From NCBI GenBank assembly GCA_044356525.1, contig JBIKVZ010000005.1, forward strand, positions 1,130 to 65,129: a stretch of 64,000 nucleotides of DNA. The letters are read 5' to 3'. Source of the DNA: Rickettsiales bacterium (GTDB lineage Bacteria > Pseudomonadota > Alphaproteobacteria > Rickettsiales > RGZB01). The notes beneath the pieces were generated by a model, which did no database searches, was not told the origin of the DNA, and saw nothing but the letters and a program-made list of their open reading frames with translations. Both the position numbers and the translations under genes were made by a program. Of the stretch, positions 9,581 to 50,798 are shown in pieces (the stretch's first letter is position 1; each line of letters opens with the position of its first letter).

Positions 9581-12502
9581 CTATCCGTCTGATTTAGGCT
9601 TCTTTGGCGTAGATTCACCGGTCAATTTTACCTGTTCTTCCAGTGCCCGTCTTAGCTCTTCCTCTTCTTCTTCCTGCTTTTTCCTACGGCGACGCTCTTC
9701 CTCAGCATCCTCACGTGCTTTTCTTTCTTGCTCACGTTGTGCTTCATCTTTTCTTGATTGCTCAGGATCCACATAGCTTTCAGGCACAGGAGGAGCCTCA
9801 TCCTTTTTAGCTGGTTTTTTATCATCGTCTTTTGATTTTCCACTACCATCGCCAAAAAGCCAGCTACTCGTTTCTTTTTCGCTGCCTGTCGTTACGGCTC
9901 GAATTGCGCCCAATTCTTTATCTGAATCCTCCTGCGCTTTCTTTATGAATTTTTCTATTTCTTTTTGTGTTGCACCTGCATCGGTAAGCTCTTTTTTGTG
10001 AGCCTTGGTTTGTTCTTTTTTCAGCTGATGCTCTTGCTTTGCAACCTCTACCACACGGCGGTCAGCATCAAACACATTGCGCTCGATGTCATGTTCTTGT
10101 TTCGCCTGTTCTTTGTTTTCTTCTCGGCTTTCTTCATCGCGAGCTTCTAAAATAACTGCGCTGAGGCGCTCTTGAGTCATTCCTGACTCAAGCACACCAT
10201 CTCTATCTGCAACCTCAATTAGCGCATCAAGCTCTTTATCAAATTCTTTTGTGATTTCTTTTTTCTTAATTTCTTGTTGAGATACTATCTCTTTCATGCC
10301 CTCTGCTGTTATTTTTGAGTGAGCTGACCTCAGGTTTTCTTCTTCTGATTTTGAGGCTGTCTCAAATCGTGAGCGCTCTACTTTCAACTCTGCGTTTAGT
10401 TTTTGTAACTCCTCAGATTCTTTTTTAGCGAGCTCGGTTTTACTTAAAGTAGAAACCTTGCGACGATCTTGCTGTTGTTTGGAAAGTTGCTCACGCTGTT
10501 TCTTTTCCTTTGAGACCAGCTCCTCCAGTTTTTTATCTTGGGCGTCACGCAATTCGCCAACACCCTTGCGTAATACGCCTTCCCTGAGCTTGGAGTATTT
10601 CTCTATTTCCTTATTTGCTTCACCCGATAGTTTTAGGATTTTATCCTGCTGTTTCGTCAGCAAGTTGGTAATAGCCGCGCGCTGCATCGAGGAGCCCTTC
10701 AATACCGATTTTAGCGCAATCTCAGTCTGCTTCTCCATATGCGCTTGTGATTTCTTTATCCCCGCACCTGCAGCAAGCGCCTTTCTGGCTTGTGTATCTT
10801 TGCGTAGCGTATCAAATGTTGCATCGACCTTCTTCTGCAGGGCTGACATTTCGTCTTTTTGCTTCCCTGCTATTTTAGCTAAATTCGCCTCGCGTGGAGT
10901 TGCAGGAGAAACAAATATTGGGCTTCGCATTTGATTCAATTTTTGTGCTGTATCTTTATCAACACCAAAGATATCCGCTGCGGCGGTACCCAGCGTTGAT
11001 TTAACCCCCTGACCTGCTTTTGCTGCCATATTGCCGGTAGCACCATACAGCACATTGCCAGCTATACTGAATGGAGACGTAGCAATTTTAGCCGCAACCT
11101 CAAGAGGGTTTCCTCTTATTGCGTTACGCATTATTTTAAGATTGTTCACATTCCATATGCCGCCTGTGGCACCACTGTTTCCGGAAAGACGGCTCAAAAT
11201 TCCGCCTTGCCCACCTTTACCAAACATGGCCCCGCTGACGCCACCCAGCGCAACACCGGCAACACCTGAAGCAGCTGCTTTCGCTGTTGCCAGGCCAATT
11301 AAAGTACCTGCACCTTTGGAGGTCACCACGGCCAAGTCAGCTCCCAACCTGTCTGCCCATGAGAACATATAGCGCATAATCCAGGCAATCATGATAAGGA
11401 CTACAAAAACAGCAAAGCTAAACGGCACTTGCGCATTAGGCCCTTCGATGCTGACAGCGTCCGTACCAAACTGCCACCAATTAAGCTGAATAATATCGCC
11501 GGGCATCGGCCAAAACTGTTTGTAACAAATGTTTGTTGGAGTGATTAGCCGCATCATATAGTCGTCATACATTGACTTCAGGAAACCCAAAACGGCAAAT
11601 ATCATAATCGGCTTAAGAGTGAAGCTGGTTATTTGCTTTAGCCAACCGCTAAACATATCCCTTGTTTGGTTGAACAATAAAAAAACAAGGAACAATGGTG
11701 CCAGCGCGTATAACAGATTACGACCCACTAACGAAATCAATACAATGTACACAGCTGTAAACAGTCCCCACATATAGCTAATAACAAGAACAATCATCAG
11801 CAAGCCATATAACCAGCCATTGCCGCCTGTCCCTGCTAGTGCGAGAATAATCTTAAGCGTGTTGTAGGATACAATATCGCCGATAATTTGATCCATAAAC
11901 TGCATGCCAGTAAGCCCACTAGACAACGCTCCGGCCAAACCCGCACTCAGCGAATTAACTGCACCCTCGAAAAAATCGCGTACATACGTACTAAAGTTTC
12001 CCCAATTCGTTGCCAAAAAGAATACCGCGCCAATCCTCATAAGGTTGGCCACTACGTCATATGGTGTAAAGCGCACAATACCCAACAAAAGCGTACTACT
12101 GTAAATTGCGATAGTAAGGGTTGCTGCCGCTGCAAGTGTTGGTCCATACCAAGGCTTTGTAGCAATACGTGTAAAAATTTCCCGGCTTGTGCGAGTAAGC
12201 TTACAATCCATGTATGCATGGATATAGGAAATCAGGCCCAAAGTTTGGGGTGTATCACCCGGATTGCACGCGAACCCTTTTTCAAGTTTGTAGGGGCTCG
12301 TCATGCCCAGAGGTTTGCAAACACTGGTGGCTTGCTTATCAACATCCCCACCGCTATTACCCTCTGCATCACCATCCGACATAGTCGTCTCAGGAAACGG
12401 GCACGCCGTTAATAACAAACAAATAAACAGCGCACAAAAAACCTTACCCACCTTAAAGGTAGTCCAGTGTTTTCTTGTATATATCTTACTGTTTTTCATC
12501 AT
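9581..12502 (-). CDS. VirB6/TrbL-like T4SS channel protein, paralog 4, with long charged C-terminal extension
   Basis: The polytopic core carries the paralog-conserved segment LYALAPLFLVFLLFNQTRDMFSGWLKQITSF. The N-terminus has the lipobox LLTAC. The C-terminal ~540 aa are K/E/Q-rich and predicted coiled coil. Its start overlaps the stop of paralog 3. Confidence 0.8.
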   Translation of the reverse strand: MMKNSKIYTRKHWTTFKVGKVFCALFICLLLTACPFPETTMSDGDAEGNSGGDVDKQATSVCKPLGMTSPYKLEKGFACNPGDTPQTLGLISYIHAYMDCKLTRTSREIFTRIATKPWYGPTLAAAATLTIAIYSSTLLLGIVRFTPYDVVANLMRIGAVFFLATNWGNFSTYVRDFFEGAVNSLSAGLAGALSSGLTGMQFMDQIIGDIVSYNTLKIILALAGTGGNGWLYGLLMIVLVISYMWGLFTAVYIVLISLVGRNLLYALAPLFLVFLLFNQTRDMFSGWLKQITSFTLKPIMIFAVLGFLKSMYDDYMMRLITPTNICYKQFWPMPGDIIQLNWWQFGTDAVSIEGPNAQVPFSFAVFVVLIMIAWIMRYMFSWADRLGADLAVVTSKGAGTLIGLATAKAAASGVAGVALGGVSGAMFGKGGQGGILSRLSGNSGATGGIWNVNNLKIMRNAIRGNPLEVAAKIATSPFSIAGNVLYGATGNMAAKAGQGVKSTLGTAAADIFGVDKDTAQKLNQMRSPIFVSPATPREANLAKIAGKQKDEMSALQKKVDATFDTLRKDTQARKALAAGAGIKKSQAHMEKQTEIALKSVLKGSSMQRAAITNLLTKQQDKILKLSGEANKEIEKYSKLREGVLRKGVGELRDAQDKKLEELVSKEKKQREQLSKQQQDRRKVSTLSKTELAKKESEELQKLNAELKVERSRFETASKSEEENLRSAHSKITAEGMKEIVSQQEIKKKEITKEFDKELDALIEVADRDGVLESGMTQERLSAVILEARDEESREENKEQAKQEHDIERNVFDADRRVVEVAKQEHQLKKEQTKAHKKELTDAGATQKEIEKFIKKAQEDSDKELGAIRAVTTGSEKETSSWLFGDGSGKSKDDDKKPAKKDEAPPVPESYVDPEQSRKDEAQREQERKAREDAEEERRRRKKQEEEEEELRRALEEQVKLTGESTPKKPKSDG

Positions 12503-13971
12503 TTTGGTTTATGAGCATCTAATGATTTACCAATACTTCCACGCAGTGAGCCTGCGCCACCCTTACCGAAGCCGGTGGCGGCACCGCCAAGTGCGCCGAC
12601 CACATCGCCTTTCGCAAGATTCCCAAGCCCTTGTCGGCCACTCGTTCCAAAAGCAGCACCCAGCGCACCGCCGCCTGCTTTCGCAAGCCCTTCTAAGGCG
12701 GCTGATTTAACTTGAACACCCGCACTAGCAAGGTTGGTGCCCATTTGTTGAATAAATCCAACAAACATAAACATAAACATACAGAAAAATGTACCGATAC
12801 CCCCAACCAGAACGTCTGTTAACGAATCAATCGAGGGAGATGGAACTGTTTTTACCCATGGCAGACCGGTGTTAGCGTCTACAAATTGGAATCGGTAGAA
12901 CGAGTACCAACTATCACTACCTACAATCTGAGAAGGCGCAGGAATAGAAATCCAGGCCATATAGCATAAATTTGGTGCCAGTGAGCGTGCCATGAAGTCC
13001 ACGATACCAAACAATAGCTCGTGCATAATAGAAACAAATGCAACCAGCAACACCGCCTGAATAATAAAGTTTATAATCTGCCCCAACCAGTTGTCGAAAA
13101 ATTGCCGTGTCTGCCTAAAGATAAGCGACAAAAGAAAAACCGGTGCCAATGCGTAAAGGAAATATCGCATAATCATAGCTAGAATAAGGTAATACAGTAC
13201 CTTCAGAACAGCAGCGACATAGAAAAAGAACATCGTGATAATCATGAAAAAGAATCCGAAGCCCACCAACCCATTAAGGGCAATTGCAAGCAGAAATTCA
13301 AAAAACTCCATGGATAAAAACATATTGATAAAGCGGTCCATCGAACCCGTTACTGAAAGCTCAGCTTGTGCCGCCGTTACAGTGCCAAAGGTCGATAGAT
13401 TACTAATAAATATTGCAGAAAGGTCGCTTACGATCGTTTCACCGAAGTCGCGCGTCCACATGGTAATGGTTGCGTAGTCTGAAACTAGGAAATACACGAT
13501 GATAACCTTGATCAGCACCGTTAACATATCGGCGATATGTGGCGAAGCACCTCCGGTAAGCACAAGGAAGAAGTAAATAGCGGTGAGCAATGTTAGAAGT
13601 GCAACGACCGTTCTTTTATACTCAGGGTCGTTCACGATGGCGGTCACAATTGCCTGGGTGCTAGCCTGAAGCCTGTCTCTTACCACTTTTAATACATACG
13701 TTACGGGACCAACGGCAGCACCGCCGGAAGGAGGGGGAGAAGATACCTTCAGGCTACCTGCGCTTGGCGGCACAATAAATATTTGATCTGTGCGTATGCA
13801 TACGCGACAATCCCTTCCGTCAGGGCAATTGCCTTTGGTTACCATGGTAGTGCCACCACCACCATCGTGCCTCTCTTTAATTTTGTCGGGAGGGGTTGTG
13901 CAAGCAGACAGCAAAAAAAATACACATAAAAGCGTGAATATAGGAAAGATTTTCTTCGGCAGTTTCACCAT
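12499..13971 (-). CDS. VirB6/TrbL-like T4SS protein, paralog 3
   Basis: Multi-TM core with LYALAPVFLLSLIFRQTRQFFDNWLGQIINF. N-terminal lipobox LLSAC. Gly-rich C-terminal tail. Confidence 0.8.
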   Translation of the reverse strand: MVKLPKKIFPIFTLLCVFFLLSACTTPPDKIKERHDGGGGTTMVTKGNCPDGRDCRVCIRTDQIFIVPPSAGSLKVSSPPPSGGAAVGPVTYVLKVVRDRLQASTQAIVTAIVNDPEYKRTVVALLTLLTAIYFFLVLTGGASPHIADMLTVLIKVIIVYFLVSDYATITMWTRDFGETIVSDLSAIFISNLSTFGTVTAAQAELSVTGSMDRFINMFLSMEFFEFLLAIALNGLVGFGFFFMIITMFFFYVAAVLKVLYYLILAMIMRYFLYALAPVFLLSLIFRQTRQFFDNWLGQIINFIIQAVLLVAFVSIMHELLFGIVDFMARSLAPNLCYMAWISIPAPSQIVGSDSWYSFYRFQFVDANTGLPWVKTVPSPSIDSLTDVLVGGIGTFFCMFMFMFVGFIQQMGTNLASAGVQVKSAALEGLAKAGGGALGAAFGTSGRQGLGNLAKGDVVGALGGAATGFGKGGAGSLRGSIGKSLDAHKPK

Positions 13972-13972
13972 A

Positions 13973-15550
13973 TCAACCGCCCTTACCTATTGCCCCACGG
14001 ATACTACCCATCCCACCGCTAATCGCCCCCATGCCTCCGGCAGCACCTTGCTTAATCATATCGCTGACACCAGAAACGGCATCCTTACCGTTAATCTGAA
14101 TCGCATTAGCAAGGTTTGGAATGGTGCTATCACCCGCACCGGCAAGCTCTGTGACCATGTTGGGAAGCTGTTTTTGAAAAGTAAACATAACCAGCATCGT
14201 GACTGTTCCAAGCATCATCGTGATGGCAAATTCTTTGACACGTGCCCACCCCCAATCCAAGAACGGCAGTGAAATATATTCTCTAATGAGACCCTTTCCC
14301 TCTTCTACAACCGCACCAACAGTATTGTCGTACACCCAATCTGCACCATCGCTTGCCCAATCTATAAGCACCCAACCTGTTCTTTCACTATCGCCCGTAT
14401 CCTGGGGCCTCACTTGCCTTGCAGCCAAGTCAACGCCTGTAATGGTTTGACGTTTTGATGGGTCGTTCATCGTGTGGTATGCATCAAGGTACAGTGCATC
14501 AAGGTCATACAAAACACTGAACATAATGTTAATAATAAATACAAAGAATACCGTTAAGATCATAGGCTGCATCGAGTAGCTGATGACCTGGTTAAGCCAC
14601 GCCCTAAAAATAGGCATTCCCCATGACTTAAACAGTATTAACGGGATAATCATCGGGCCAATTGCGGTAAGGAACAAAATGGCCACAAGTGATGCAATAT
14701 ACATGTAGACAGCCATTGCGAGAGAAAAGAATGTCATCAAAATTGCAGCGAGGCCGATCATCACCACCCACGTTCCTATGGGCCCCAGCATGATCAATAA
14801 CGCCAAAACAATTAACCCAAAAGCACCATTGATTAGTATTTTTTCCGTTGCTTTACCGGGAGAGTCTGTGCCGCTAACACCCACTAAAGTTCGAAGCATC
14901 TCATCCACGAAAAGCCATATCCTGCCGCCTGGAATATTGCTAGGGTTTGAATTAAGATTTTGTGCTGGTGCAAGAGGATCTTGCTCGTTAATTCCGCCAT
15001 CACCTGTGCCAGACAAAAAACTTTGGTCTCTGGCTGACGCAACTTCAAATGGCATCACCTCGATAGCCGTATCCGTGATAATCGAAGTTACTGAGGTTAT
15101 GTCATTCTTGATTTGTAAAAAATTTGTGCCAAGCGCAAAATAGCTTACTGCGGCCATTTTTAGGGCAAAAATGGTCAGCTCTTTAGTGAGATCCCTAGTT
15201 AAACTGCCAAACATGATACGAAGAGCGATAATAACAATACCCATTACCATCATGGATGCGACAACATCGCGGATGCCATTGACGACAGGCCCCACCATTG
15301 AGGTACCAAGAACCTCCACCACGCGGGTAAAGCAGAAAACAACTGGCTCGGTGATACCGGGAGGCGAAGCGCTAATAGCAGTTTGAACACGCGGCTTACA
15401 CTCGTTTGTCAGAACGTTTCCAACCGGGGTACTTGCAAACACCGATTCAGGCAATACGATGGCAAACAGTGAAAATATGGCGAAAAACAGAAAAATTTTT
15501 TCCCTACATTTCATGCCTAAGAACATGTTTTTTGTACACTGTCTTTGCAT
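13973..15550 (-). CDS. VirB6/TrbL-like T4SS protein, paralog 2
   Basis: Signal peptide, multi-TM core with IGPMIIPLILFKSWGMPIFRAWLNQVISY, and a Gly-rich C-terminal tail. Confidence 0.78.
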   Translation of the reverse strand: MQRQCTKNMFLGMKCREKIFLFFAIFSLFAIVLPESVFASTPVGNVLTNECKPRVQTAISASPPGITEPVVFCFTRVVEVLGTSMVGPVVNGIRDVVASMMVMGIVIIALRIMFGSLTRDLTKELTIFALKMAAVSYFALGTNFLQIKNDITSVTSIITDTAIEVMPFEVASARDQSFLSGTGDGGINEQDPLAPAQNLNSNPSNIPGGRIWLFVDEMLRTLVGVSGTDSPGKATEKILINGAFGLIVLALLIMLGPIGTWVVMIGLAAILMTFFSLAMAVYMYIASLVAILFLTAIGPMIIPLILFKSWGMPIFRAWLNQVISYSMQPMILTVFFVFIINIMFSVLYDLDALYLDAYHTMNDPSKRQTITGVDLAARQVRPQDTGDSERTGWVLIDWASDGADWVYDNTVGAVVEEGKGLIREYISLPFLDWGWARVKEFAITMMLGTVTMLVMFTFQKQLPNMVTELAGAGDSTIPNLANAIQINGKDAVSGVSDMIKQGAAGGMGAISGGMGSIRGAIGKGG

Positions 15551-15553
15551 TGT

Positions 15554-17053
15554 TTACATCTTGCCCGCTTGTTGCATCGCACCGGAAACACTATTCTTCA
15601 TACTTAAGTCTGCACCGCCAGAAACCGCTGCTGCTGTTGCATCTTTTGTTAAATTCTTTGCAGCATTCACAGCGGCTGCATAATAATTGATGTTACTCAT
15701 GAAGGTCGCGGAGACACCAGCACCAACCATTTCGCCAGCCCTTGACATCACGTTATTCATGAAGCTTAGGGTTAACACCATCATAATCGCCAAAACCATC
15801 AGGTTGATTAGAAGATGCTGCGTTCTGCACGAAATATATTTCGCTCGATCACCCGCCAATGTGGAGCAAATATTCACATCCGCAGCGTTATACTCATGGC
15901 TGGTCACCACAAAAGACCACCCCTCCACCTCAGAATTTTTACCTTGTGCAGGGTCTGCAACAATGGTAGTGACATCGCGGTTTTCAACGCGAGACTGCCC
16001 CTCGACCACTGTTTTATGTGATTTATAGTTAGTGTTATTGATTGTGTTTACAATGTCTGTGGCAATGCTTCGTAAACCCATGATGTTATTGGGCCCTGCC
16101 CCCGGAGGATCAATCACATAGCTATATATTTGTAGGCAGAAGGCAAGGTAGCCAAATAAAATCATTGGCATGAGCGTATAGCCAATCAACGCTTTAAACC
16201 AAACATCGAAAATGGTCTTTGTGCTGTTGAAAAGTACGGTCGGTATTGTAATCGGAGAAATCATCATGAGGACTGTAAGCGCAATGATGCACATGACATA
16301 TGCCATGCATGCCGTGGCAAATGCCGCCACCATAAAGAAAACCATAATGCCAACCATCACCATGACTGCCAGTCCCGGAGGCGTCCAAATAAGTTGGCCT
16401 GCGATAGAAAGAAGCGCCCATGGATTATTACTCCCCCCCACAACATCCCCGAGCATTGCATGCATCAAGTTGCAGTCTATTCTTACCCATATTCGGTCAT
16501 ACCCGCATGCGGGATTACCAGGCACTGTAGAAGTAATTACATCCGTCAGGCCCTTCATAAAGGTATAAAAGCCTGGCATAAAATACTCTACACCACCGTA
16601 CAAAACCAAAAATGTAACGGCAGTGAATTTTACAACGACAATAGAGAATTCAGCCGCGTATGACTTATCGAACGCGTTAAATAAAGTTTTATAGCCCATA
16701 ATAACAAGGTAAAGCACCAAAACACCAACCACCGTGTCTTTTATTGTATTTCGAAAAGTGGTGAAGCCCGTCATGCCAAAATAAACAATCATATCTTCCA
16801 TGCACCCAACCAGCGGGTGGGTAAATTCTGCATACGCCGTTGGAGGATAGCCTGCGGAATAAGCACTGCCCGGTGGGCCGCCACTTGGGTTTGTTGGCAT
16901 GATCGTAGTGGCGCCGCTCAAATCTTTTATTGGAATAGAGGGCCTTGTAACGCAGTTTATCGCCCACGCTTCGCCATGCCACAACACAATACTGAAGAAC
17001 AACAGCAATGCGGCGACTAAACGCGTAGTACTATAGCTGGTTAACCCTCTCAT
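15554..17053 (-). CDS. VirB6/TrbL-like T4SS protein, paralog 1
   Basis: Signal peptide MRGLTSYSTTRLVAALLLFFSIVLWHGEAWA. Multi-TM core with ISPITIPTVLFNSTKTIFDVWFKALIGY. ATG 17053 is preferred over the tracked 17107, which sits deeper inside virB4. Confidence 0.78.
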   Translation of the reverse strand: MRGLTSYSTTRLVAALLLFFSIVLWHGEAWAINCVTRPSIPIKDLSGATTIMPTNPSGGPPGSAYSAGYPPTAYAEFTHPLVGCMEDMIVYFGMTGFTTFRNTIKDTVVGVLVLYLVIMGYKTLFNAFDKSYAAEFSIVVVKFTAVTFLVLYGGVEYFMPGFYTFMKGLTDVITSTVPGNPACGYDRIWVRIDCNLMHAMLGDVVGGSNNPWALLSIAGQLIWTPPGLAVMVMVGIMVFFMVAAFATACMAYVMCIIALTVLMMISPITIPTVLFNSTKTIFDVWFKALIGYTLMPMILFGYLAFCLQIYSYVIDPPGAGPNNIMGLRSIATDIVNTINNTNYKSHKTVVEGQSRVENRDVTTIVADPAQGKNSEVEGWSFVVTSHEYNAADVNICSTLAGDRAKYISCRTQHLLINLMVLAIMMVLTLSFMNNVMSRAGEMVGAGVSATFMSNINYYAAAVNAAKNLTKDATAAAVSGGADLSMKNSVSGAMQQAGKM

Positions 17054-19424
17054 AAAATATCGGTAGCCATGTATCAGGATTATCACCCACTTCTGCTCGA
17101 ATCTCATCGAGCAGCCTTACCGTTTCAGCACGTCCAGATAAAACGTGAATTGCATTTGTCATGCCAGAAAGGTCAATGCGCGCCACCACAACTTCTGAAC
17201 CTTGCTTTACAAGGAAGTATCGTGTGGAAGGCGGCGTTGTTTTAATAATCTGGAACTCACGATCACTCAGCATGAACGTCTTTTTATATTCTTCTGTTGC
17301 CTTAGGGTTTGGCAGGAATATCTGCGTTGCTGTTTGCTGAATGAGCGTATCACTGATGTTACTTTTTGATGCGTCTTCCACGCTCTGAGTTGCAAAAATT
17401 ACCATCGCGTTCAGCTTACGAAGCGTTTTTAGCCAATCTTTAATTTTCGGAGCAAAAATCGGGTTATCAATCAGCGCCCATGCTTCGTCGAGCACGATAA
17501 CGGTTGGGGTACCATCGAGTGATTGGCTGATGCGATGGAACAAATACAAAAGAACCGGACCAATACTCACTTTGTCTTTCAGAACTTCGCCCATTTCGAA
17601 GCCAAACACTTTTGACTTTGAGAAGTCCAAAGAATCCTCAGGATTATCGAATAGCTTGGCATGAGATTCACCACTGTGCCACATTTTAAAACGACCCGCG
17701 AGCGTGCCAGGCCCCTCTAAGCCGAGAAACGCCGCAATATTGCTCGGCGTGCGCTTCTCTTTCTGCATTTTGTAATTGCCCTTAATTGCCTCGCTAATCG
17801 CATCGATGTCTTCGGGAGTAACTTTGTCGACGTGACTCATCACCAGAGCTGTCATCCAATCCGTTAAGAACGAACGGTTTTCTGGCGTATCATCTAACTG
17901 CAACGGATTAAAGCCAGATTCCTTACCAGGCTCAATAATCGTAAAAACCCCACCAAGCGCGCGAATAAATATTTCAGCACCGCGGTCTTTATCAAAAAAG
18001 AACATGCGACCATTATATTTTTGAGCCTGTGCGCATAAAAAATTCATCAGCACCGTTTTACCAGCACCAGTCGGACCAATGATGGTGGTGTGACCCACGT
18101 CGCGAGAGTGGAAGTTAAAGAAATACGGCGTGCCCGAAGTCGTATCAAACACTGTCAGCGCATTACCCCAATGATTGCCTGTGCACTTCCCAACAGGATA
18201 ATTATGCAACGACGCAAAAGAGGCAAGGTTCAGCGAATGTATTTTCGCTTTTCGCGGCAAATAATCAAAATTACCCGGCAATTGACCCCAATAGGAAGCC
18301 ATAAGATTTACCGTTTCGCGAACGGGTATAACGCCGAAGTTTACAAGCTCCCCGTACACCATGGAGAGGTTGTCTTCCATTCTCTTGAGGTTTTCATCCA
18401 TACACATCACGGTCAGGTGATGATAACCAAAGGCGATGTGGCCACCCATCGCAAGGTCAAGCGCGCCGCTGATTTCAACAGCTTGTGATATACCCGCATC
18501 ATTACCGCTTACCATTTTACGCTGCTGCGTTTTCATATCGGCAATCGCCGCCGCACGATTCATAAACTGGAAGGACTGAGAAAGCACATACTCAAATGGC
18601 AATTGAAGAAATGAATCCATCATGCCGGCCGATGTATGCGATGGGTATTCCTTTAAGCTTACAATACCAGCATATTTATTGCCCGTAGGCCCCCTTATCT
18701 CCATTGCCCGTGGACCAAAATATAGTCGACAGGTTGGAAGATAATGGGAGATATCAATTGTAGGCACAATCATGTTCGAGACGTTACCGCCGTTAACAAG
18801 CATCCCCAAAAATTCTAAAACTTCAGACTGGTGTACACCGTCTTCACTTTCGATCATTCCCAGCAGTCTTGGTTTATAATCTCTCAGTGTAGCCATCACG
18901 CGCTTTGCTAAATCTGAGACTTCTTTATAAGAAGCTTTAATTTGCATTTCCCACGCTTCTTTGTCAGCCTTCTGCTGCAGAAGCTTCATAAAATGCTCAA
19001 TCTTCGCGACACCTTTTGTGTCAGACTTAATCATCACAGTCATGTAGAGGTCATTACTGAATGTCTCGCGAGCATGGTGTTTTTTGCGCCATAGGCTTTC
19101 AAGATACGTGGCAAAACCGGGCGGGTGATTACCATCAACGTGCACAGATATCTTCCGGCGAACAATATGAAACCACATTGCATAATTGCCCTGCGCCACG
19201 CTCTTCAGCAGCGTATTACGCAGGTTTTTAGCCATATCCACATATTCGTCATCTGCCGTTTCAAACGAGAAACCCTCAAGCTTGACAACCTGCATCAACT
19301 CATCATTTTTAGTCACAATCGTATTACTGTCCCAATGGCAGTAATAGGGAATGAACGCCGACTCCGAGAACTCTTTGTCAGCCACGGCAGAATAGCGCGA
19401 ACGCCTGCGGCTAAACTTTACCAT
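17031..19424 (-). CDS. virB4: Type IV secretion ATPase VirB4
   Basis: 797 aa. Walker A is IIGPTGAGKTVLMNF and Walker B-like is VIVLDEAWALI. The organisation is typical of VirB4/CagE and it follows virB3. Confidence 0.93.
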   Translation of the reverse strand: MVKFSRRRSRYSAVADKEFSESAFIPYYCHWDSNTIVTKNDELMQVVKLEGFSFETADDEYVDMAKNLRNTLLKSVAQGNYAMWFHIVRRKISVHVDGNHPPGFATYLESLWRKKHHARETFSNDLYMTVMIKSDTKGVAKIEHFMKLLQQKADKEAWEMQIKASYKEVSDLAKRVMATLRDYKPRLLGMIESEDGVHQSEVLEFLGMLVNGGNVSNMIVPTIDISHYLPTCRLYFGPRAMEIRGPTGNKYAGIVSLKEYPSHTSAGMMDSFLQLPFEYVLSQSFQFMNRAAAIADMKTQQRKMVSGNDAGISQAVEISGALDLAMGGHIAFGYHHLTVMCMDENLKRMEDNLSMVYGELVNFGVIPVRETVNLMASYWGQLPGNFDYLPRKAKIHSLNLASFASLHNYPVGKCTGNHWGNALTVFDTTSGTPYFFNFHSRDVGHTTIIGPTGAGKTVLMNFLCAQAQKYNGRMFFFDKDRGAEIFIRALGGVFTIIEPGKESGFNPLQLDDTPENRSFLTDWMTALVMSHVDKVTPEDIDAISEAIKGNYKMQKEKRTPSNIAAFLGLEGPGTLAGRFKMWHSGESHAKLFDNPEDSLDFSKSKVFGFEMGEVLKDKVSIGPVLLYLFHRISQSLDGTPTVIVLDEAWALIDNPIFAPKIKDWLKTLRKLNAMVIFATQSVEDASKSNISDTLIQQTATQIFLPNPKATEEYKKTFMLSDREFQIIKTTPPSTRYFLVKQGSEVVVARIDLSGMTNAIHVLSGRAETVRLLDEIRAEVGDNPDTWLPIFYERVNQL

Positions 19425-19438
19425 TCCAAGCCCCTTTC

Positions 19439-19753
19439 TTAGTACGTATCAAAAGACTGTGTAAAACCGTGAAAACCTGTGTTGCGGCACTTCGCACACT
19501 TCTGGATGCGCGTCATCCATAAATCCATAAAGCGCGGCTCCTTAGAGCAAATAATATAACCCAGAAGATGCGTAAGGGCGGCGCCCGGAATCAGCACGCC
19601 AAAGTTTTTCGCGTTAATAAAATACATGGTCCATATCATGCCGTTAATCATGAACCAGTTGTATGTTACGCCCATCATCATTGGGGGGCGGGTCAGACCC
19701 AAAAAGAGCGGGTCAGCTGAAAGCCTTCCAACATCCTTCTTATCATCGGCCAT
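19439..19753 (-). CDS. virB3: Type IV secretion protein VirB3
   Basis: 104 aa with LFLGLTRPPMMMGVTYNWFMINGMIW, the conserved VirB3 membrane segment. GAGGAG lies upstream of the ATG. Confidence 0.88.
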   Translation of the reverse strand: MADDKKDVGRLSADPLFLGLTRPPMMMGVTYNWFMINGMIWTMYFINAKNFGVLIPGAALTHLLGYIICSKEPRFMDLWMTRIQKCAKCRNTGFHGFTQSFDTY

Positions 19754-20029: not shown

Positions 20030-20150
<121 letters not shown>

Positions 20151-20369
20151 CAACGAAGCAAGCGTAAAAACAGTAACGATTTCAATCTATTATGAACCAG
20201 CTAATGTTATTGTGCAGGTTTAATGCTGCATACAACAACGGTAGCAAAATTTAAGCCAATGAAGCAATTAGTACTGGTAAGCTAAAGGCATTACTACCCT
20301 TACACACCCAGCCTATCAACGTCGTAGTCTACGACGGCTCTCATGGGGAAGTATAGTCTTGAGGAGGGT

Positions 20370-20401
<32 letters not shown>

Positions 20402-20567
20402 TCCGTACATAGCTACCCAGCGCTGCTCCTGGCGGAACAACTGGCACACCAGAGGTACGTTCATCCCGGTCCTCTCGTACTAGGGACAAATCCTCTCAAA
20501 CTTCCAACGCCTACGGCAGATAGGGACCGAACTGTCTCACGACGTTCTAAACCCAGCTCACGTACCA

Positions 20568-20646
<79 letters not shown>

Positions 20647-20673
20647 TTGCCGTCGATATGAGCTCTTGGGCAA

Positions 20674-20705
<32 letters not shown>

Positions 20706-21166
20706 TCGTTGAGCGATGGCCCCACCACGTGGAACCACCGGATCACTATGACCGACTTTCGTCTCTGCTCGACATGTACGTCTCGCAGTCAGGCAGGCTT
20801 ATGCCATTACACTCTGAAAGGTTGATTTCCGACCAACCTGAGCCTACCTTCGCACGCCTCCGTTACTTTTTGGGAGGCGACCGCCCCAGTCAAACTGCCC
20901 ATCATGCATGGTCCCCGACCCGGTTAACGGGTCTAGGTTAGATATCAAAAATACGTAGGGTGGTATCTCAAGGGTGGCTCCACCAAAGCTTGCGCTTCGG
21001 CTTCAAAGCCTCCCACCTATCCTGCACAACGAATTTCTAATACCAATGCAAAATTGCAGTAAAGGTGCACGGGGTCTTTCCGTCTAACCGCAGGTACCCC
21101 GCATCTTCACGAGGAATTCTATTTCGCTGAGCCGGTGTTGGAGACAGTGGGGAAGTCGTTACGCCA

Positions 21167-21250
<84 letters not shown>

Positions 21251-21523
21251 ATCCAGAGCTTGCACTCCATCACTTAACCTTCCGGCACTGGGCAGGCGTC
21301 AGACCCTATACGTCGACATTAATCTTCGCAGAGCCCTGTGTTTTTAGTAAACAGTCGCTACCCCCTAGCTTGTGCCACCTTTACATGGTTGCCCACATAA
21401 AGGCCACTCTTCTTCCGAAGTTACAAGTGCAACTTGCCTAGTTCCTTCAACACCGTTCTCTCAATCGCCTTGGTATACTCTACCAGTCCACCTGTGTCGG
21501 TTTGGGGTACGGACATTAGGCCC

Positions 21524-21946
21524 CAACGCCAGATATCAGAAACCAATTTAACCAAGCGCTGCTTTAACTGCAGCCTCGATGGCTTTTTTGTCTTTTAATG
21601 CTTGCTCGGAAGCAGCATTAAGATTGTTTGTCCGCCCTTCGTTCACATAAGCTTCGGCCAGCCTGCTTGCAAGCTGCTCGGAGTTTGGAAAAAAAGGCAT
21701 GCCAAGCTTAAAGTTTGGCAAACGCTCAAGGAGCAATGCATTCATCAGTTTCATCTGATAAACGAACACTTCGCTTTTTGCGTTAAGACTAAACAAATTG
21801 CCATCGGTTGATTTGGCTTTATTGATAATATCACTGTGTGACGCCATATAGACTCTGCTAGTTAAGAGTTAAGTTATTCGACTCACTCTCTTACCATCAA
21901 AGCATTTGGTTTACCACAGTAAATTAGCTTCTGATATCTGACGTTG
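21524..21946 (-). other. Intervening sequence (IVS) inside the 23S rRNA, closed by a ~20 bp stem
   Basis: The plus-strand arms are CAACGCCAGATATCAGAAACC (21524-21544) and GCTTCTGATATCTGACGTTG (21927-21946). They are inverted repeats. Sequence outside the arms aligns to conserved 23S domain III and sequence inside does not. Confidence 0.8.
21548..21847 (-). CDS. 99-aa ORF inside the 23S IVS, same sense as the rRNA
   Basis: Uninterrupted ORF MASHSDIINKAKSTDG...AIEAAVKAALG. It looks mostly helical. It stops 3 nt before the 3' stem arm. There is no strong SD, so translation is unproven. Confidence 0.45.
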   Translation of the reverse strand: MASHSDIINKAKSTDGNLFSLNAKSEVFVYQMKLMNALLLERLPNFKLGMPFFPNSEQLASRLAEAYVNEGRTNNLNAASEQALKDKKAIEAAVKAALG

Positions 21947-22356
21947 AAGTCCTATGTGGGAGCTATTTCCTGGGACCCCTTCACTGCCCGATCAATCCAA
22001 TAAGACCGAACAATTTACAGAATCCGTCACTACCCACTGGCCCATGAATATTAACATGGTTCCCATCGACTACGGCTCTCGCCCTCGCCTTAGGGGCCGG
22101 CTAACCCTGCGCAGATTAACTTTACGCAGGAACCCTTGGACATTCGGCGGGCGTGTTTCTCACACGCCTTTCGCTACTCAAGTCAGCATTCTCTCTTCTG
22201 ATACCTCCAGCACACCTTACGATGCACCTTCACAGGCTTACAGAATGCTCCGCTACCACTCTTTCGAGTCCGCATCTTCGGTACGTGACTTAATCCCCGA
22301 TACATTTTAGGCGCAAGAAAACTTATCTAGACCAGTGAGCTGTTACGCTTTCTTTA

Positions 22357-22387
<31 letters not shown>

Positions 22388-22954
22388 TTGTCTTGGTCTT
22401 CTCACATCCTTTCCAACTTAGTCACGATTTCGGGACCTTAGATGGCGGTCTGGGCTCTTTCCCTCTCGACCATGGACCTTATCACCCACAGTCTGTCTGC
22501 CGCAGAATCACTTTCCGGTATTCGGAGTTTGGTAAGGTTTGGTAAGGCTTTGGGCCCCCCTAGCCCTTCCAGTGCTCTACCCCCGGAAGTGTATATTGCG
22601 ACGCACTACCTAAATAGTTTTCGCGGAGAACCAGCTATTTCCCAGTTTGATTGGCCTTTCACCCCTAACCACAACTCATCCGAGACCTTTTCAACGGGCA
22701 CCGGTTCGGTCCTCCAGCTGGTGTTACCCAACCTTCAACCTGGTCATGGCTAGATCACTGAGGTTTCGGGTCTACTACAACTAACTAAATCGCCCTATTC
22801 AGACTCGCTTTCGCTACGGCTACACCTAACGGCTTAACCTTGCTAGTTACAGTAACTCGCTGACCCATTATACAAAAGGTACGCCGTCACAGCTCAAGGC
22901 TGCTCCGACTGTTTGTAGGCATTCGGTTTCAGGTACTATTTCACTCCCCTAATC

Positions 22955-22985
<31 letters not shown>

Positions 22986-23695
22986 GGTGCACTATCGGTC
23001 GCTAGAGAGTACTTAGGCTTGGAGGGTGGCCCCCCCATGTTCAGACAGGATTTCACGTGTCCCGCCTTACTCGAGAACATATATGCTTTCTACCCGTACG
23101 GGGCTATCACCCACTATGGCGCGACTTTCCAGACGCTTCCGGTTCTTACATACATGTTACTGGCCTGTTCCGGGTTCGCTCGTCACTACTAACGGAGTCT
23201 CTGTTGATGTCCTTTCCTCCGGCTACTTAGATATTTCAGTTCACCGGGTTCGCTTCCTTAACCTATGTATTCAGTTAAGGATACGGCCTAAGCCGTGGGT
23301 TTCCCCATTCGGAAATCTTCGGGTCAACGGTTGCTAGCACCTCACCGAAGCTTATCGCAGCTTGCTACGTCCTTCATCGCCTTCTAGCGCCAAGGCATCC
23401 ACCAAATGCCCTTATGTTGCTTAAATTTTGAGAATTACGGTTGCTGTATGCAGAACTAAACTTGCACACTTCAACATTTTTTGTTCGCTTCACTTTCAGC
23501 ACAGGATGTCTATGCCGCAAGCAAAGCTTAACACCGATTCAGCTAACAAAACGCGTATATCAGAACCTTTCGATTCCAACATATCGCCCTGCTAGCGATT
23601 AGTTTGATAATCTTTACTGTATGTCATATTCACGATGTAAAACAGCGGCTTTTCCTCAGAAAAGCGTTCCACACTATTACGTGTAGAGAGCGGCT

Positions 23696-49415: not shown

Positions 49416-50798
49416 ATGACCGCACGCGTACTGATTGTTGACGACTTAGCGCCAAACGTAAAGCTGCTCGAAGCCAAGCTAGCGAACGAATATTATGAAT
49501 ATGCCTCGGCTTACTCCGGCAAAGAAGCGCTCGAAAAGGTAAAAACCTTTAAGCCTGATATTATCCTGCTCGACGTCATGATGCCAGAAATGGATGGCTT
49601 TGAAGCCTGCAAGCGCCTGAAGTCCGACCCTGAAACGTCGCACATTCCGGTGGTGATGGTGACCGCACTCAGCGATATTTCTGACCGCGTACAAGGCCTG
49701 CAGAGCGGTGCGGATGACTTTCTTACCAAACCGATTAACGAGGTGCATCTATTTGCACGCATCCGTTCCCTCACCCGCGTAAAGCTCATGCTCGATGAGC
49801 TTCGCCTGCGTGACAAAACCGGTTCGCAGTTCGGCTTGGTGGAACAAGCCACCACTGAAAATTATGACACCAAAGGCGCACGCGTCTTTGTGGTAGATGA
49901 CGATGTAGTGGAATCCAAGCAAATGAAAGAAACCCTCGAAGCCAACGGCTTTGTGGTGGAGTTCGCCAAGGCAGAAGAAGCCGTGGCCAAAGCGGCAGGA
50001 ACGCCACCGGATTTAATTATCGTCAGCACCATGCTCGACAATGTCGATGGCCTGCGCCTGTGTGTGCAAGTCCGAAGCCAGGAAGCATCACGCCATGTGC
50101 CGCTAATGATTATGGTAGATATTGAAGACAAGGCGCTGCTCATTAAAGGCCTTGAGATGGGCATCAATGATTACATCGTTTCTCCGCTCGATGCGAATGA
50201 ACTGATTGCACGCTCCCGTACGCAAATTAAGCGCAAGCGCTACCAGGATGCGCTGAAGTCAAACTACGAAGAAAGCGTGTCGCTCGCGATTACCGACAGC
50301 CTCACCAAGCTCTATAACCGTCGCTATCTTGACGCACACATCCAGAATATTTTTGTGGAATGCATGGCAAAAAAAATGCCGCTTTCTGTGCTTTCGCTTG
50401 ATATCGACCACTTTAAAAGTATCAACGACAAACCAGGCTGGGGTCACCATATTGGTGACGAAGTGCTAAAGCAGTTTGCTCAGCGTATTTTAGCCGGCGT
50501 GCGTACAACTGACCTTGCCTGCCGCCCAGGCGGCGAAGAATTTGTGATTTTGCTGCCCGGCGCGGATAAGGACACCGCCAAAGCCATGGCAGAGCGCGTA
50601 CGCGCTTCTATTGCCGATGTGCCCTTCCCGATTACTGCTGCGCCGAACCACGTGCAAGTCACCACCAGCGTTGGTATGGCATCCACAGGGCATGGCATTA
50701 CGTCTGCCGCTGATTTGCTGAAAAAATCTGATGAAGCTTTGTATGCCGCCAAGAAAACGGGCCGCAATAAAGTGGTCACCGCTGAAGAGCTGGTCTGA
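49416..50798 (+). CDS. pleD: Response regulator diguanylate cyclase PleD (REC-REC-GGDEF)
   Basis: Two receiver domains, then a GGDEF domain with an RTTD I-site five residues before GGEEF. Confidence 0.9.
   Translation: MTARVLIVDDLAPNVKLLEAKLANEYYEYASAYSGKEALEKVKTFKPDIILLDVMMPEMDGFEACKRLKSDPETSHIPVVMVTALSDISDRVQGLQSGADDFLTKPINEVHLFARIRSLTRVKLMLDELRLRDKTGSQFGLVEQATTENYDTKGARVFVVDDDVVESKQMKETLEANGFVVEFAKAEEAVAKAAGTPPDLIIVSTMLDNVDGLRLCVQVRSQEASRHVPLMIMVDIEDKALLIKGLEMGINDYIVSPLDANELIARSRTQIKRKRYQDALKSNYEESVSLAITDSLTKLYNRRYLDAHIQNIFVECMAKKMPLSVLSLDIDHFKSINDKPGWGHHIGDEVLKQFAQRILAGVRTTDLACRPGGEEFVILLPGADKDTAKAMAERVRASIADVPFPITAAPNHVQVTTSVGMASTGHGITSAADLLKKSDEALYAAKKTGRNKVVTAEELV

Follow-up and report, generated by a model that had tools for sequence, protein, structure and literature searches.

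Intervening sequences (IVSs) within the 23S ribosomal RNA (rRNA) genes of bacteria have been known since 1990. To our knowledge, the described IVSs cluster at the tips of three hairpins, and those that contain an open reading frame (ORF) carry one gene family, S23p. The 64,000-nucleotide stretch of DNA from a Rickettsiales bacterium analysed here (contig JBIKVZ010000005.1, positions 1,130 to 65,129; hereafter the window) contains a single 23S rRNA gene that is interrupted by an insert. The insert is probably an IVS excised by RNase III, which is positioned at a site other than the known ones and holds a captured cellular gene, referred to here as X. The published IVS sites are located at positions ~131–168 (helix 9), 543–550 (helix 25), and 1176 (helix 45), where a small tetraloop has given way to an extended stem-loop (PMC6191907, PMC4990558). 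The IVS of Coxiella is 428–444 nt long, has a 28-bp stem with one mismatch and one bulge, contains a sense ORF, and is cleaved in vitro by the RNase III of both Coxiella and Escherichia coli (PMC4990558). IVSs of the 16S rRNA of endosymbionts from the Rickettsiales lineage have been reported, according to the citation of Baker et al. 2003 in PMC5041132.

The classical IVSs without ORFs, which occur in helices 25 and 45 of Salmonella, Yersinia, and Campylobacter and in helix 9 of Alphaproteobacteria, are sporadically distributed extra stem-loops of the 23S rRNA with a terminal duplex on which RNase III could act, and the insert in the window shares these properties (PMC6191907, PMC4990558, PMC2672173). 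However, these IVSs replace a hairpin tetraloop, are ~80–200 nt long, and contain no gene, whereas the insert described here is a new helix that extends from one strand of a junction of several helices and includes a conserved gene. The similarity to the Coxiella IVS is closer in size (423–439 nt in the window and 428–444 nt in Coxiella), in the terminal stem of ~28–31 bp with one mismatch or bulge, and in the presence of one sense ORF of ~100–120 codons that fills the loop and has a weak ribosome-binding site. Another likeness is that of a single-copy 23S gene unlinked from the 16S gene in a host-associated bacterium (PMC4990558). By contrast, the Coxiella IVS is located at the tip of helix 45 (~1176) and not at the junction of helices 54 and 51 (~1595), and the IVSs of Coxiella, Leptospira, and Brucella carry S23p ORFs, whereas the ORF in the window does not belong to S23p by sequence or fold. 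The elements of the interrupted region are the following, with all coordinates given in the window:

21524–21946, minus strand: intervening sequence within the limits of the original prediction, 423 nt, rRNA positions 1481–1903, missing from six alphaproteobacterial 23S genes
21923–21954, minus strand: 5' strand of the terminal helix, rRNA positions 1473–1504, from minimum free energy and centroid folds, the pair list, and inverted repeat I1
21848–21922, minus strand: leader, 75 nt from the 5' stem strand to the AUG, with GCAGAG-N5-AUG and no strong Shine-Dalgarno sequence
21548–21847, minus strand: 99-codon ORF P0001, a member of a conserved family of 99–102-residue proteins
21516–21547, minus strand: 3' strand of the terminal helix, rRNA positions 1880–1911, from the same folds, pair list, and inverted repeat
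21956–21960, minus strand: CCCAC, directly on the 5' side of the insert, forming the 3' strand at the helix 54 base by pairing with GUGGG
22033–22037, minus strand: GUGGG, forming the 5' strand at the helix 54 base by pairing with CCCAC

The locus thus comprises a clean insertion at the linker between helices 54 and 51, a 31-bp helix, an intact sense ORF of a conserved family, and intact flanking helices. As far as they can be judged from sequence, the testable claims of the original prediction, which was made from the DNA alone, all hold, with two of its estimates of distance and length revised below. The 423-nt block is present as it was described, and it is a true insertion, because six alphaproteobacterial 23S genes are otherwise collinear with the window and lack it. 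A 1201-nt query centred on the block spans only 773–777 nt in the 23S genes of Azospirillum, Sinorhizobium, Tistrella, and Indioceanicola. These genera and other Rhizobiales provide the best matches to the query, which have ~83–84% identity and are 23S genes borne on megaplasmids or chromids. The alignment of four alphaproteobacterial 23S sequences, that of E. coli, and the window contains one clean extra block in the window, between CCCAC-A and GUCCGUACC. The window is collinear with the references up to ...CCAGGAAAUAGCUCCCACAUAG and then again from GUCCGUACCCCAAACCGACACAGG; an example of a reference with an empty site reads ...AUAGCUCCACCGUAUA-GACCGUACCC. Two more metagenomic 23S genes, which were found using a helix 53 pattern, lack the block and read CCCGC-AUUA-GACCG and CCACC-AAUAUA-GACCG. 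The same scan of metagenomes yielded no close relative, no nearest IVS-free sister, and no diverged copy of the IVS.

The position of the insert within the rRNA structure is defined by the base of helix 54, with helix numbers that we take to be those of the E. coli 23S model. The base pairing of helix 54 covaries across seven alphaproteobacterial sequences (GCGGG/CCCGC, GGCGG/CCGCC, and GGUGG/CCACC) and corresponds to the pairing of G1405–U1409 with A1589–C1593 of E. coli. In the Rfam consensus, the 3' strand of the helix 54 composite directly precedes that of the helix enclosing helices 52–54. The pairing together with this order of strands therefore places the insert, as judged from the alignment, in the linker of 4–7 nt between the 3' strands of helices 54 and 51, equivalent to A1594–U1597 of E. 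coli. The estimate of a site near E. coli position ~1590 was a good one, and the insert is on the 5' side of the GUACCCC motif, as had been proposed; however, the distance to the motif (G1599) is 13 nt rather than ~25 nt. The site differs from the positions in helices 9, 25, and 45, in agreement with the prediction (alignment; PMC6191907, PMC4990558), and the insert does not replace the tip of any of these three helices, as a classical IVS does. Full-text searches of the literature on 23S IVSs, with helix 54 and Rickettsiales included, yielded no report of an IVS at the junction of helices 54 and 51.

Alignment to the Rfam LSU covariance model, which the original prediction had proposed as the means of fixing the helix, failed in this role, because it misplaces the insert with a low posterior probability. 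The Rfam alignment opens an insertion of 410 nt too far upstream, in the area of helix 58, and puts the 3' end of the ORF (GCUGCAGUUAAAGCAGC) on helix 59 and the 3' stem strand on helix 54, with posterior probabilities of ~0.2–0.4. This placement was rejected because of its low confidence and because it is contradicted by the alignment to alphaproteobacteria without the IVS. A global pairwise alignment to E. coli is unreliable across the variable region and was not used for the placement. With parts of the insert forced onto helices 58, 59, and 54 by Rfam, inserts of this kind would be misplaced or overlooked by automated pipelines, and their automatic placement should be checked against relatives without an insert.

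The ends of the insert pair with each other. The arms CAACGUCAGAUAUCAGAAGC and GGUUUCUGAUAUCUGGCGUUG (in rRNA sense) form 20 base pairs, including 2 G-U pairs, as predicted, and the sole match of an arm in the 64 kb of the window is its partner arm, with 2 mismatches, where shuffled sequences give an expectation of 0.00. A repeat search extends the arms to inverted repeat I1, which has a length of 38 nt (21513–21550 and 21920–21957). The pairing of the original ~20-bp stem is therefore retained but its length is not, as the fold and the pair list indicate a helix of ~31 bp. The terminal helix includes 31 base pairs, of which 5 are G-U, and two single unpaired adenosines, and its 3' strand begins 1 nt past the stop codon of the ORF. 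The fold of 451 nt around the block has a free energy of −166.4 kcal/mol, compared to −116.1 ± 5.1 kcal/mol for dinucleotide shuffles (z = −9.97). The sequence predicts a terminal duplex usable by RNase III, with a length in the range of ~20 bp or more that is characteristic of IVSs. As had been claimed, the paired termini are a long duplex of the type that RNase III cuts in the Coxiella IVS (31-bp helix; PMC4990558).

The proposed maturation of the rRNA would start with the transcription of the 23S rRNA with ~430 extra nucleotides, which would fold as the 31-bp helix projecting from the linker between helices 54 and 51. RNase III would cut this terminal helix in the same manner as the stem flanking the pre-23S rRNA. 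The insert would be lost without religation, and the ribosome would function with the 23S rRNA in two pieces. The lengths predicted for these pieces are 1480 and 1277 nt, which agrees with the fragments of ~1.48 and ~1.28 kb that were anticipated. The excision by RNase III is proposed because the Coxiella IVS, which has a similar size and stem, is cut by this enzyme (PMC4990558). The 23S rRNAs of Rhizobium, Agrobacterium, and Gluconobacter are likewise cut in domain III, into pieces of ~1.5 and 1.3 kb (PMC6191907); however, their cut is near position 1500, ~100 nt upstream in E. coli numbering, and does not involve an IVS.

A different fate of the helix is known from ribosomes in which extra rRNA is retained. 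The H54a "steeple" or "handle" of mycobacteria, which contains ~100–110 nt, emerges at helix 54 next to the yeast expansion segment ES26 (PMC3286452, PMC5737476). H54a and ES26 resemble the insert as extra rRNA at helix 54 of domain III, a likeness that holds at the level of the helix. Because H54a and ES26 emerge at helix 54, the region is suggested to be solvent-exposed and tolerant of additions. It is conceivable that the helix in the window is not cleaved and forms a surface arm of the mature 23S rRNA, like the actinobacterial H54a: helix 54 accommodates extra rRNA on the ribosome surface in both mycobacteria and yeast (PMC3286452, PMC5737476), and the sequence contains no proof of cleavage. 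However, H54a and ES26 are retained, lineage-wide structural RNAs without ORFs, whereas the insert is missing from the six other alphaproteobacterial 23S genes, and it holds a conserved coding gene and has a GC content of 41.6% compared to 51.7% in the rest of the 23S gene. The interior of the insert resembles messenger RNA (mRNA) more than structured rRNA, and a near-perfect duplex such as that of 31 bp is a substrate of RNase III in every tested IVS (PMC4990558). A retained expansion segment is therefore unlikely.

The ORF was described in the original prediction as a 99-residue reading frame on the sense strand, ending 3 nt before the 3' arm and not resembling S23p, and the reading frame, the quoted peptide, and the position of the stop codon relative to that arm are all confirmed. 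No Pfam or NCBIfam family matches the ORF even at E ≤ 10, including the S23p models PF05635 and TIGR02436, and no PDB chain matches it in Foldseek; because of the lack of any Pfam or NCBIfam match, the ORF is not an S23p gene. PHROGs and PADLOC also provide no match. A word-indexed search of 5.8 billion proteins returned the ORF itself only; however, an exhaustive HMMER search of 1.84 billion cluster representatives identified three full-length relatives and one truncated one, and a later profile search extended the family to 15 clusters, of which 13 are full length. Members of family X are 99–102 residues long, share 35–87% identity, and can be aligned without internal indels. The 21 invariant columns of the alignment include H4, M32-K33, N36, L40, P44, F46, G49, F52-F53-P54, and L59, and also R62-L63, E65, Y67, and N69. 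P0001 aligns over its full length without internal indels and retains all 21 invariant residues. It departs alone from otherwise invariant columns only in F21L and H31Q, whereas the free-standing P0004 does so at ten positions. P0001 represents a separate lineage, with 48–56% identity to the clades of X linked to maeB and thrC and 38% to P0004.

The comparison of substitution rates across relatives, which had been suggested as a check, gives ratios of non-synonymous to synonymous substitutions (dN/dS) of ~0.02–0.27 where dS is unsaturated; for the lineage in the IVS, dS is saturated against every homologue. The AlphaFold2 model of the ORF product, calculated from the family alignment, is confident (pLDDT, predicted local distance difference test, 86.9; pTM, predicted template modelling score, 0.80). 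The model contains helices formed by residues 4–14, 26–41, 56–69, and 76–98 and a conserved GxPFFP loop. Its four helices have lengths of 11–23 residues, and the fold is not the long four-helix bundle of S23p. Foldseek identified no structure in the PDB at E < 1, with a highest query-normalised TM-score (template modelling score) of 0.40 among the 50 matches listed, and no similar structure in BFVD, with a highest score of 0.50 among the matches listed; all matches from the two databases have E > 0.7. A profile search of PDB sequences with family X returned nothing. Judged from the alignment and the predicted model, X is a genuine conserved small protein without a match to a fold class.

An insert that is located within an rRNA gene and holds an ORF could in principle be a self-splicing group I or group II intron or an element with a homing endonuclease, as found in the 23S genes of bacteria from the candidate phyla radiation (CPR) and of Coxiella. 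However, no intron family matches the insert even at E ≤ 10, and the covariance models returned just two chance matches to small nucleolar RNAs at E > 1. The ORF lacks LAGLIDADG, HNH, GIY-YIG, and any other Pfam domain, the site is not among the conserved functional sites of such introns (PMC11270868), and the structure is a simple long stem. As far as covariance models and domain searches reach, they rule out an intron, no other known RNA family matches the insert, and an intron of any kind is exceedingly improbable.

The genomic context of X was looked up for 10 of the 12 other full-length clusters and for two defective copies, with P0012, P0013, and P0017 left out. All the members looked up apart from P0001 are free-standing chromosomal genes, usually in the arrangement maeB-X-rpsT, and the Rfam scan placed none of them in rRNA. 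Seven full-length clusters (P0015, P0014, P0010, P0009, P0002, P0011, and P0016) have this arrangement, in which X is positioned 11 to ~270 nt after maeB, encoding malic enzyme, and/or ~65–75 nt before rpsT, encoding ribosomal protein S20. The distance of 11 nt from maeB occurs in several loci, and that of ~65–75 nt to rpsT at L004, L006, L014, L016, L026, and L027. The spacer between X and rpsT includes a sigma-70-like promoter in the four loci that were read (L003, L004, L014, and L016), with TTGACT-N17-TATAAG in three of them. The remaining settings of X are as follows:

P0003: between the gene of an M32 peptidase and thrC
P0004: between the gene of a glycosyltransferase and mutL
P0006: defective X after maeB, frameshifted
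P0018: defective X, truncated just upstream of a gene with transposase-type helix-turn-helix domains

One of the damaged free-standing copies (L023:5001–5400 and L022:100–930) is frameshifted past 54 codons, with the remainder in another frame, and the other is cut at 70 codons. Some lineages can therefore do without gene X. The scan of 185,579 species genomes yielded one match to X, in a metagenome-assembled genome labelled uncultured Alphaproteobacteria, and the window contains no second copy of X. The leader and stem have no nucleotide similarity to the flanks of the free-standing homologues, and the likeness is limited to the ORF. Since X is part of an IVS in the window and free-standing in relatives, the IVS would have captured or delivered a passenger gene other than S23p.

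Such a passenger could have arrived in a mobile element, which is compatible with an IVS that is excised by RNase III. The insert might be derived from a non-autonomous transposon, similar to a miniature inverted-repeat transposable element (MITE), that landed with its passenger gene at a TA in the linker between helices 54 and 51. Such an insertion would be tolerated if the inverted repeats formed a stem that can be processed, and terminal inverted repeats are present. The core G1475...C1908 is bordered by UA on both sides. Removal of the core and one UA leaves CCCAC-AUAAUG-UCCG, which is close to the empty linkers AUAUUG, GUAUAG, and AUUAG of relatives without the IVS; however, a duplication of 2 nt in an AU-rich linker is weak evidence and not significant. 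The origin of IVSs by transposition is a long-standing hypothesis (PMC4990558). An insert with an ORF and bounding inverted repeats also recalls the insertion sequence (IS) elements in the 23S genes of Nostoc and Deinococcus (PMC2672173), but those are 1.1–1.5 kb long, encode a transposase, have other genomic copies, and interrupt one of several rRNA operons. The ORF in the window contains no transposase domain, the arms have no second copy within the 64 kb, and homologues of X are absent from collections of phages, plasmids, and viruses. The GC content of the insert is lower than that of the remaining 23S gene (41.6% and 51.7%, respectively), and that at third codon positions (GC3) of the ORF is 44%, compared to 57 ± 6% in the genes of the host, which would be in line with a foreign origin; however, the argument loses force, as the free-standing copies of X are likewise somewhat poorer in GC than their flanks. 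Overall, the origin from a mobile element is a possible but tentative explanation.

The insert occurs a second time. The same IVS, joined to the 23S gene at identical positions, is present in the 775-nt contig L002 from another metagenome (ENA ERZ4201065). Relative to the window, the IVS of L002 has two base changes, GCG to GCA and CUG to CUA in the ORF, neither of which alters the protein (dN = 0, dS = 0.03), and apart from these 2 single-nucleotide polymorphisms (SNPs) the contig is identical to the window over the IVS and ~270 nt of the upstream 23S gene. The occurrence of the same junctions in L002 demonstrates that those between the IVS and the 23S gene are not an artefact of one assembly. 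It could be argued that the insert or its segment of the 23S gene comes from another organism or was misjoined, because the sequence was assembled from a metagenome and L002 jumps abruptly from ~80% to 100% identity with the window. However, the independent sample contains both junctions and the IVS, with 2 SNPs. In addition, the two arms are complementary, the insert is bordered precisely by helices 54 and 51, and the 23S gene is intact elsewhere. An assembly artefact or chimera is therefore very improbable. The joining of an almost identical IVS to a diverged upstream 23S sequence in L002 is also in line with a mobile element. The break in L002 reflects either real mosaicism, through transfer or conversion of the segment bearing the IVS, or a chimeric assembly with a low coverage of 1.4×.

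Several points weigh against the interpretation of the insert as an excised IVS with a captured cellular gene. Excision is demonstrated for the Coxiella IVS, whereas excision and fragmentation of the 23S rRNA in the window are inferred by analogy with it. The insert interrupts a junction strand and not the tip of a hairpin, and there is no precedent for a tolerated break at such a position. Beyond ~270 nt upstream of the IVS, L002 diverges by ~20%, with compensatory changes in helices (L002:1–160 compared to 22150–22300 of the window). As metagenomic rRNA assemblies can be chimeric, the IVS cannot be tied to the chromosome with full certainty. The conservation of X may be older than its capture, and selection inside the IVS can be judged from just 2 substitutions. 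In Coxiella, the S23p ORF seems to decay without being expressed, and the RNA of the IVS is unstable (PMC4990558). The leader includes no sigma-70-like promoter, and the insert contains no internal promoter or terminator. The free-standing copies of X have clear Shine-Dalgarno sequences (AAGGA, GGGAG, and AGGAG), whereas the copy in the IVS has no strong one, just GCAGAG-N5-AUG; 12 of 30 genes of the host likewise lack a recognisable Shine-Dalgarno sequence. Despite these points, the excised IVS with its captured gene is the interpretation that we consider probable.

The excised RNA of ~400 nt, closed by the residual stem, could serve as an mRNA, and we infer, with less assurance than the excision, that it may be translated. 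The intact ORF, the retention of the residues that are invariant in the family, and the differences that are synonymous only speak for translation, whereas the weak ribosome-binding site and the precedent of Coxiella speak against it. It is also possible, but doubtful, that the IVS is an expression device, in which RNase III frees the stem-closed RNA of ~400 nt as a mini-mRNA, so that X is made in step with the synthesis of rRNA. The position of X directly upstream of rpsT in relatives suggests that X might act in the biogenesis or function of ribosomes, although this connection may be one of synteny only. If the IVS were such a device, a functional protein-coding gene would be housed in, and matured from, a bacterial rRNA precursor.

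The interrupted 23S gene and its processing stem have the following coordinates:

20247–23426, minus strand: 23S rRNA gene, 3180 nt with the insert and 2757 nt without it, identified with Rfam RF02541 LSU_rRNA_bacteria (2679 bits, model positions 1–2925)
23436–23468, minus strand: 5' half of the pre-23S processing stem, inverted repeat I2
20211–20243, minus strand: 3' half of the pre-23S processing stem, inverted repeat I2, pairing with 23436–23468

Outside the insert, the gene is full length and has a high Rfam score, and the closest 23S sequences among those available are from Rhodospirillales and Rhizobiales. Inverted repeat I2, with 33 nt and 85% complementarity on the two sides of the gene, is by its sequence the expected stem for the processing of pre-23S rRNA by RNase III. 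The 23S gene is followed by a 5S gene (20035–20149), without a tRNA-Ile or tRNA-Ala spacer, and the Rfam scan found no 16S gene in the 64-kb window. A lone tRNA-Ile(GAU) gene (327–403) is positioned ~20 kb from the 23S–5S pair, just ahead of secA. The separation of the 23S and 5S genes from the 16S gene is a trait of Rickettsiales. Directly downstream of the rRNA genes are virB3 (19439–19753, minus strand) and virB4 (17031–19424, minus strand), followed on the same strand by four tandem virB6/TrbL paralogues (15554–17107, 13973–15550, 12499–13971, and 9581–12502). The layout of this virB3-virB4-virB6 cluster (9581–19753) is a hallmark of the rvh type IV secretion system of Rickettsiales and points to a Rickettsiales-like host. 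The remainder of the window encodes housekeeping functions, including secA, hemF, dapB, metG, hisS, prfA, prmC, ispG, tmk, holB, ppc, and acs. It also includes a gene for a PleD-like regulator with two receiver domains and a GGDEF domain (49416–50798, plus strand). A gene for a large serine recombinase with Resolvase and Zn_ribbon_recom domains (54928–56520, minus strand) abuts tRNA-Tyr (54910–54995), and this region (54910–56520) may be the edge of an integrated element.

The new features of the locus, as they appear from its sequence, are an IVS at an unreported site that is not a hairpin and a conserved cellular cargo gene outside the S23p family. The junction strand at the helix 54 base may have room for a large insert, and perhaps even for a break of the rRNA chain, and such tolerance bears on the assembly of ribosomes and on the choice of sites for rRNA engineering. 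An IVS can carry another cellular gene that is still intact, which supports the view of IVSs as mobile cassettes. The intact X within the IVS allows a direct test of whether the ORFs of IVSs are ever expressed, and the locus is relevant to the processing of rRNA and the evolution of ribosomes.

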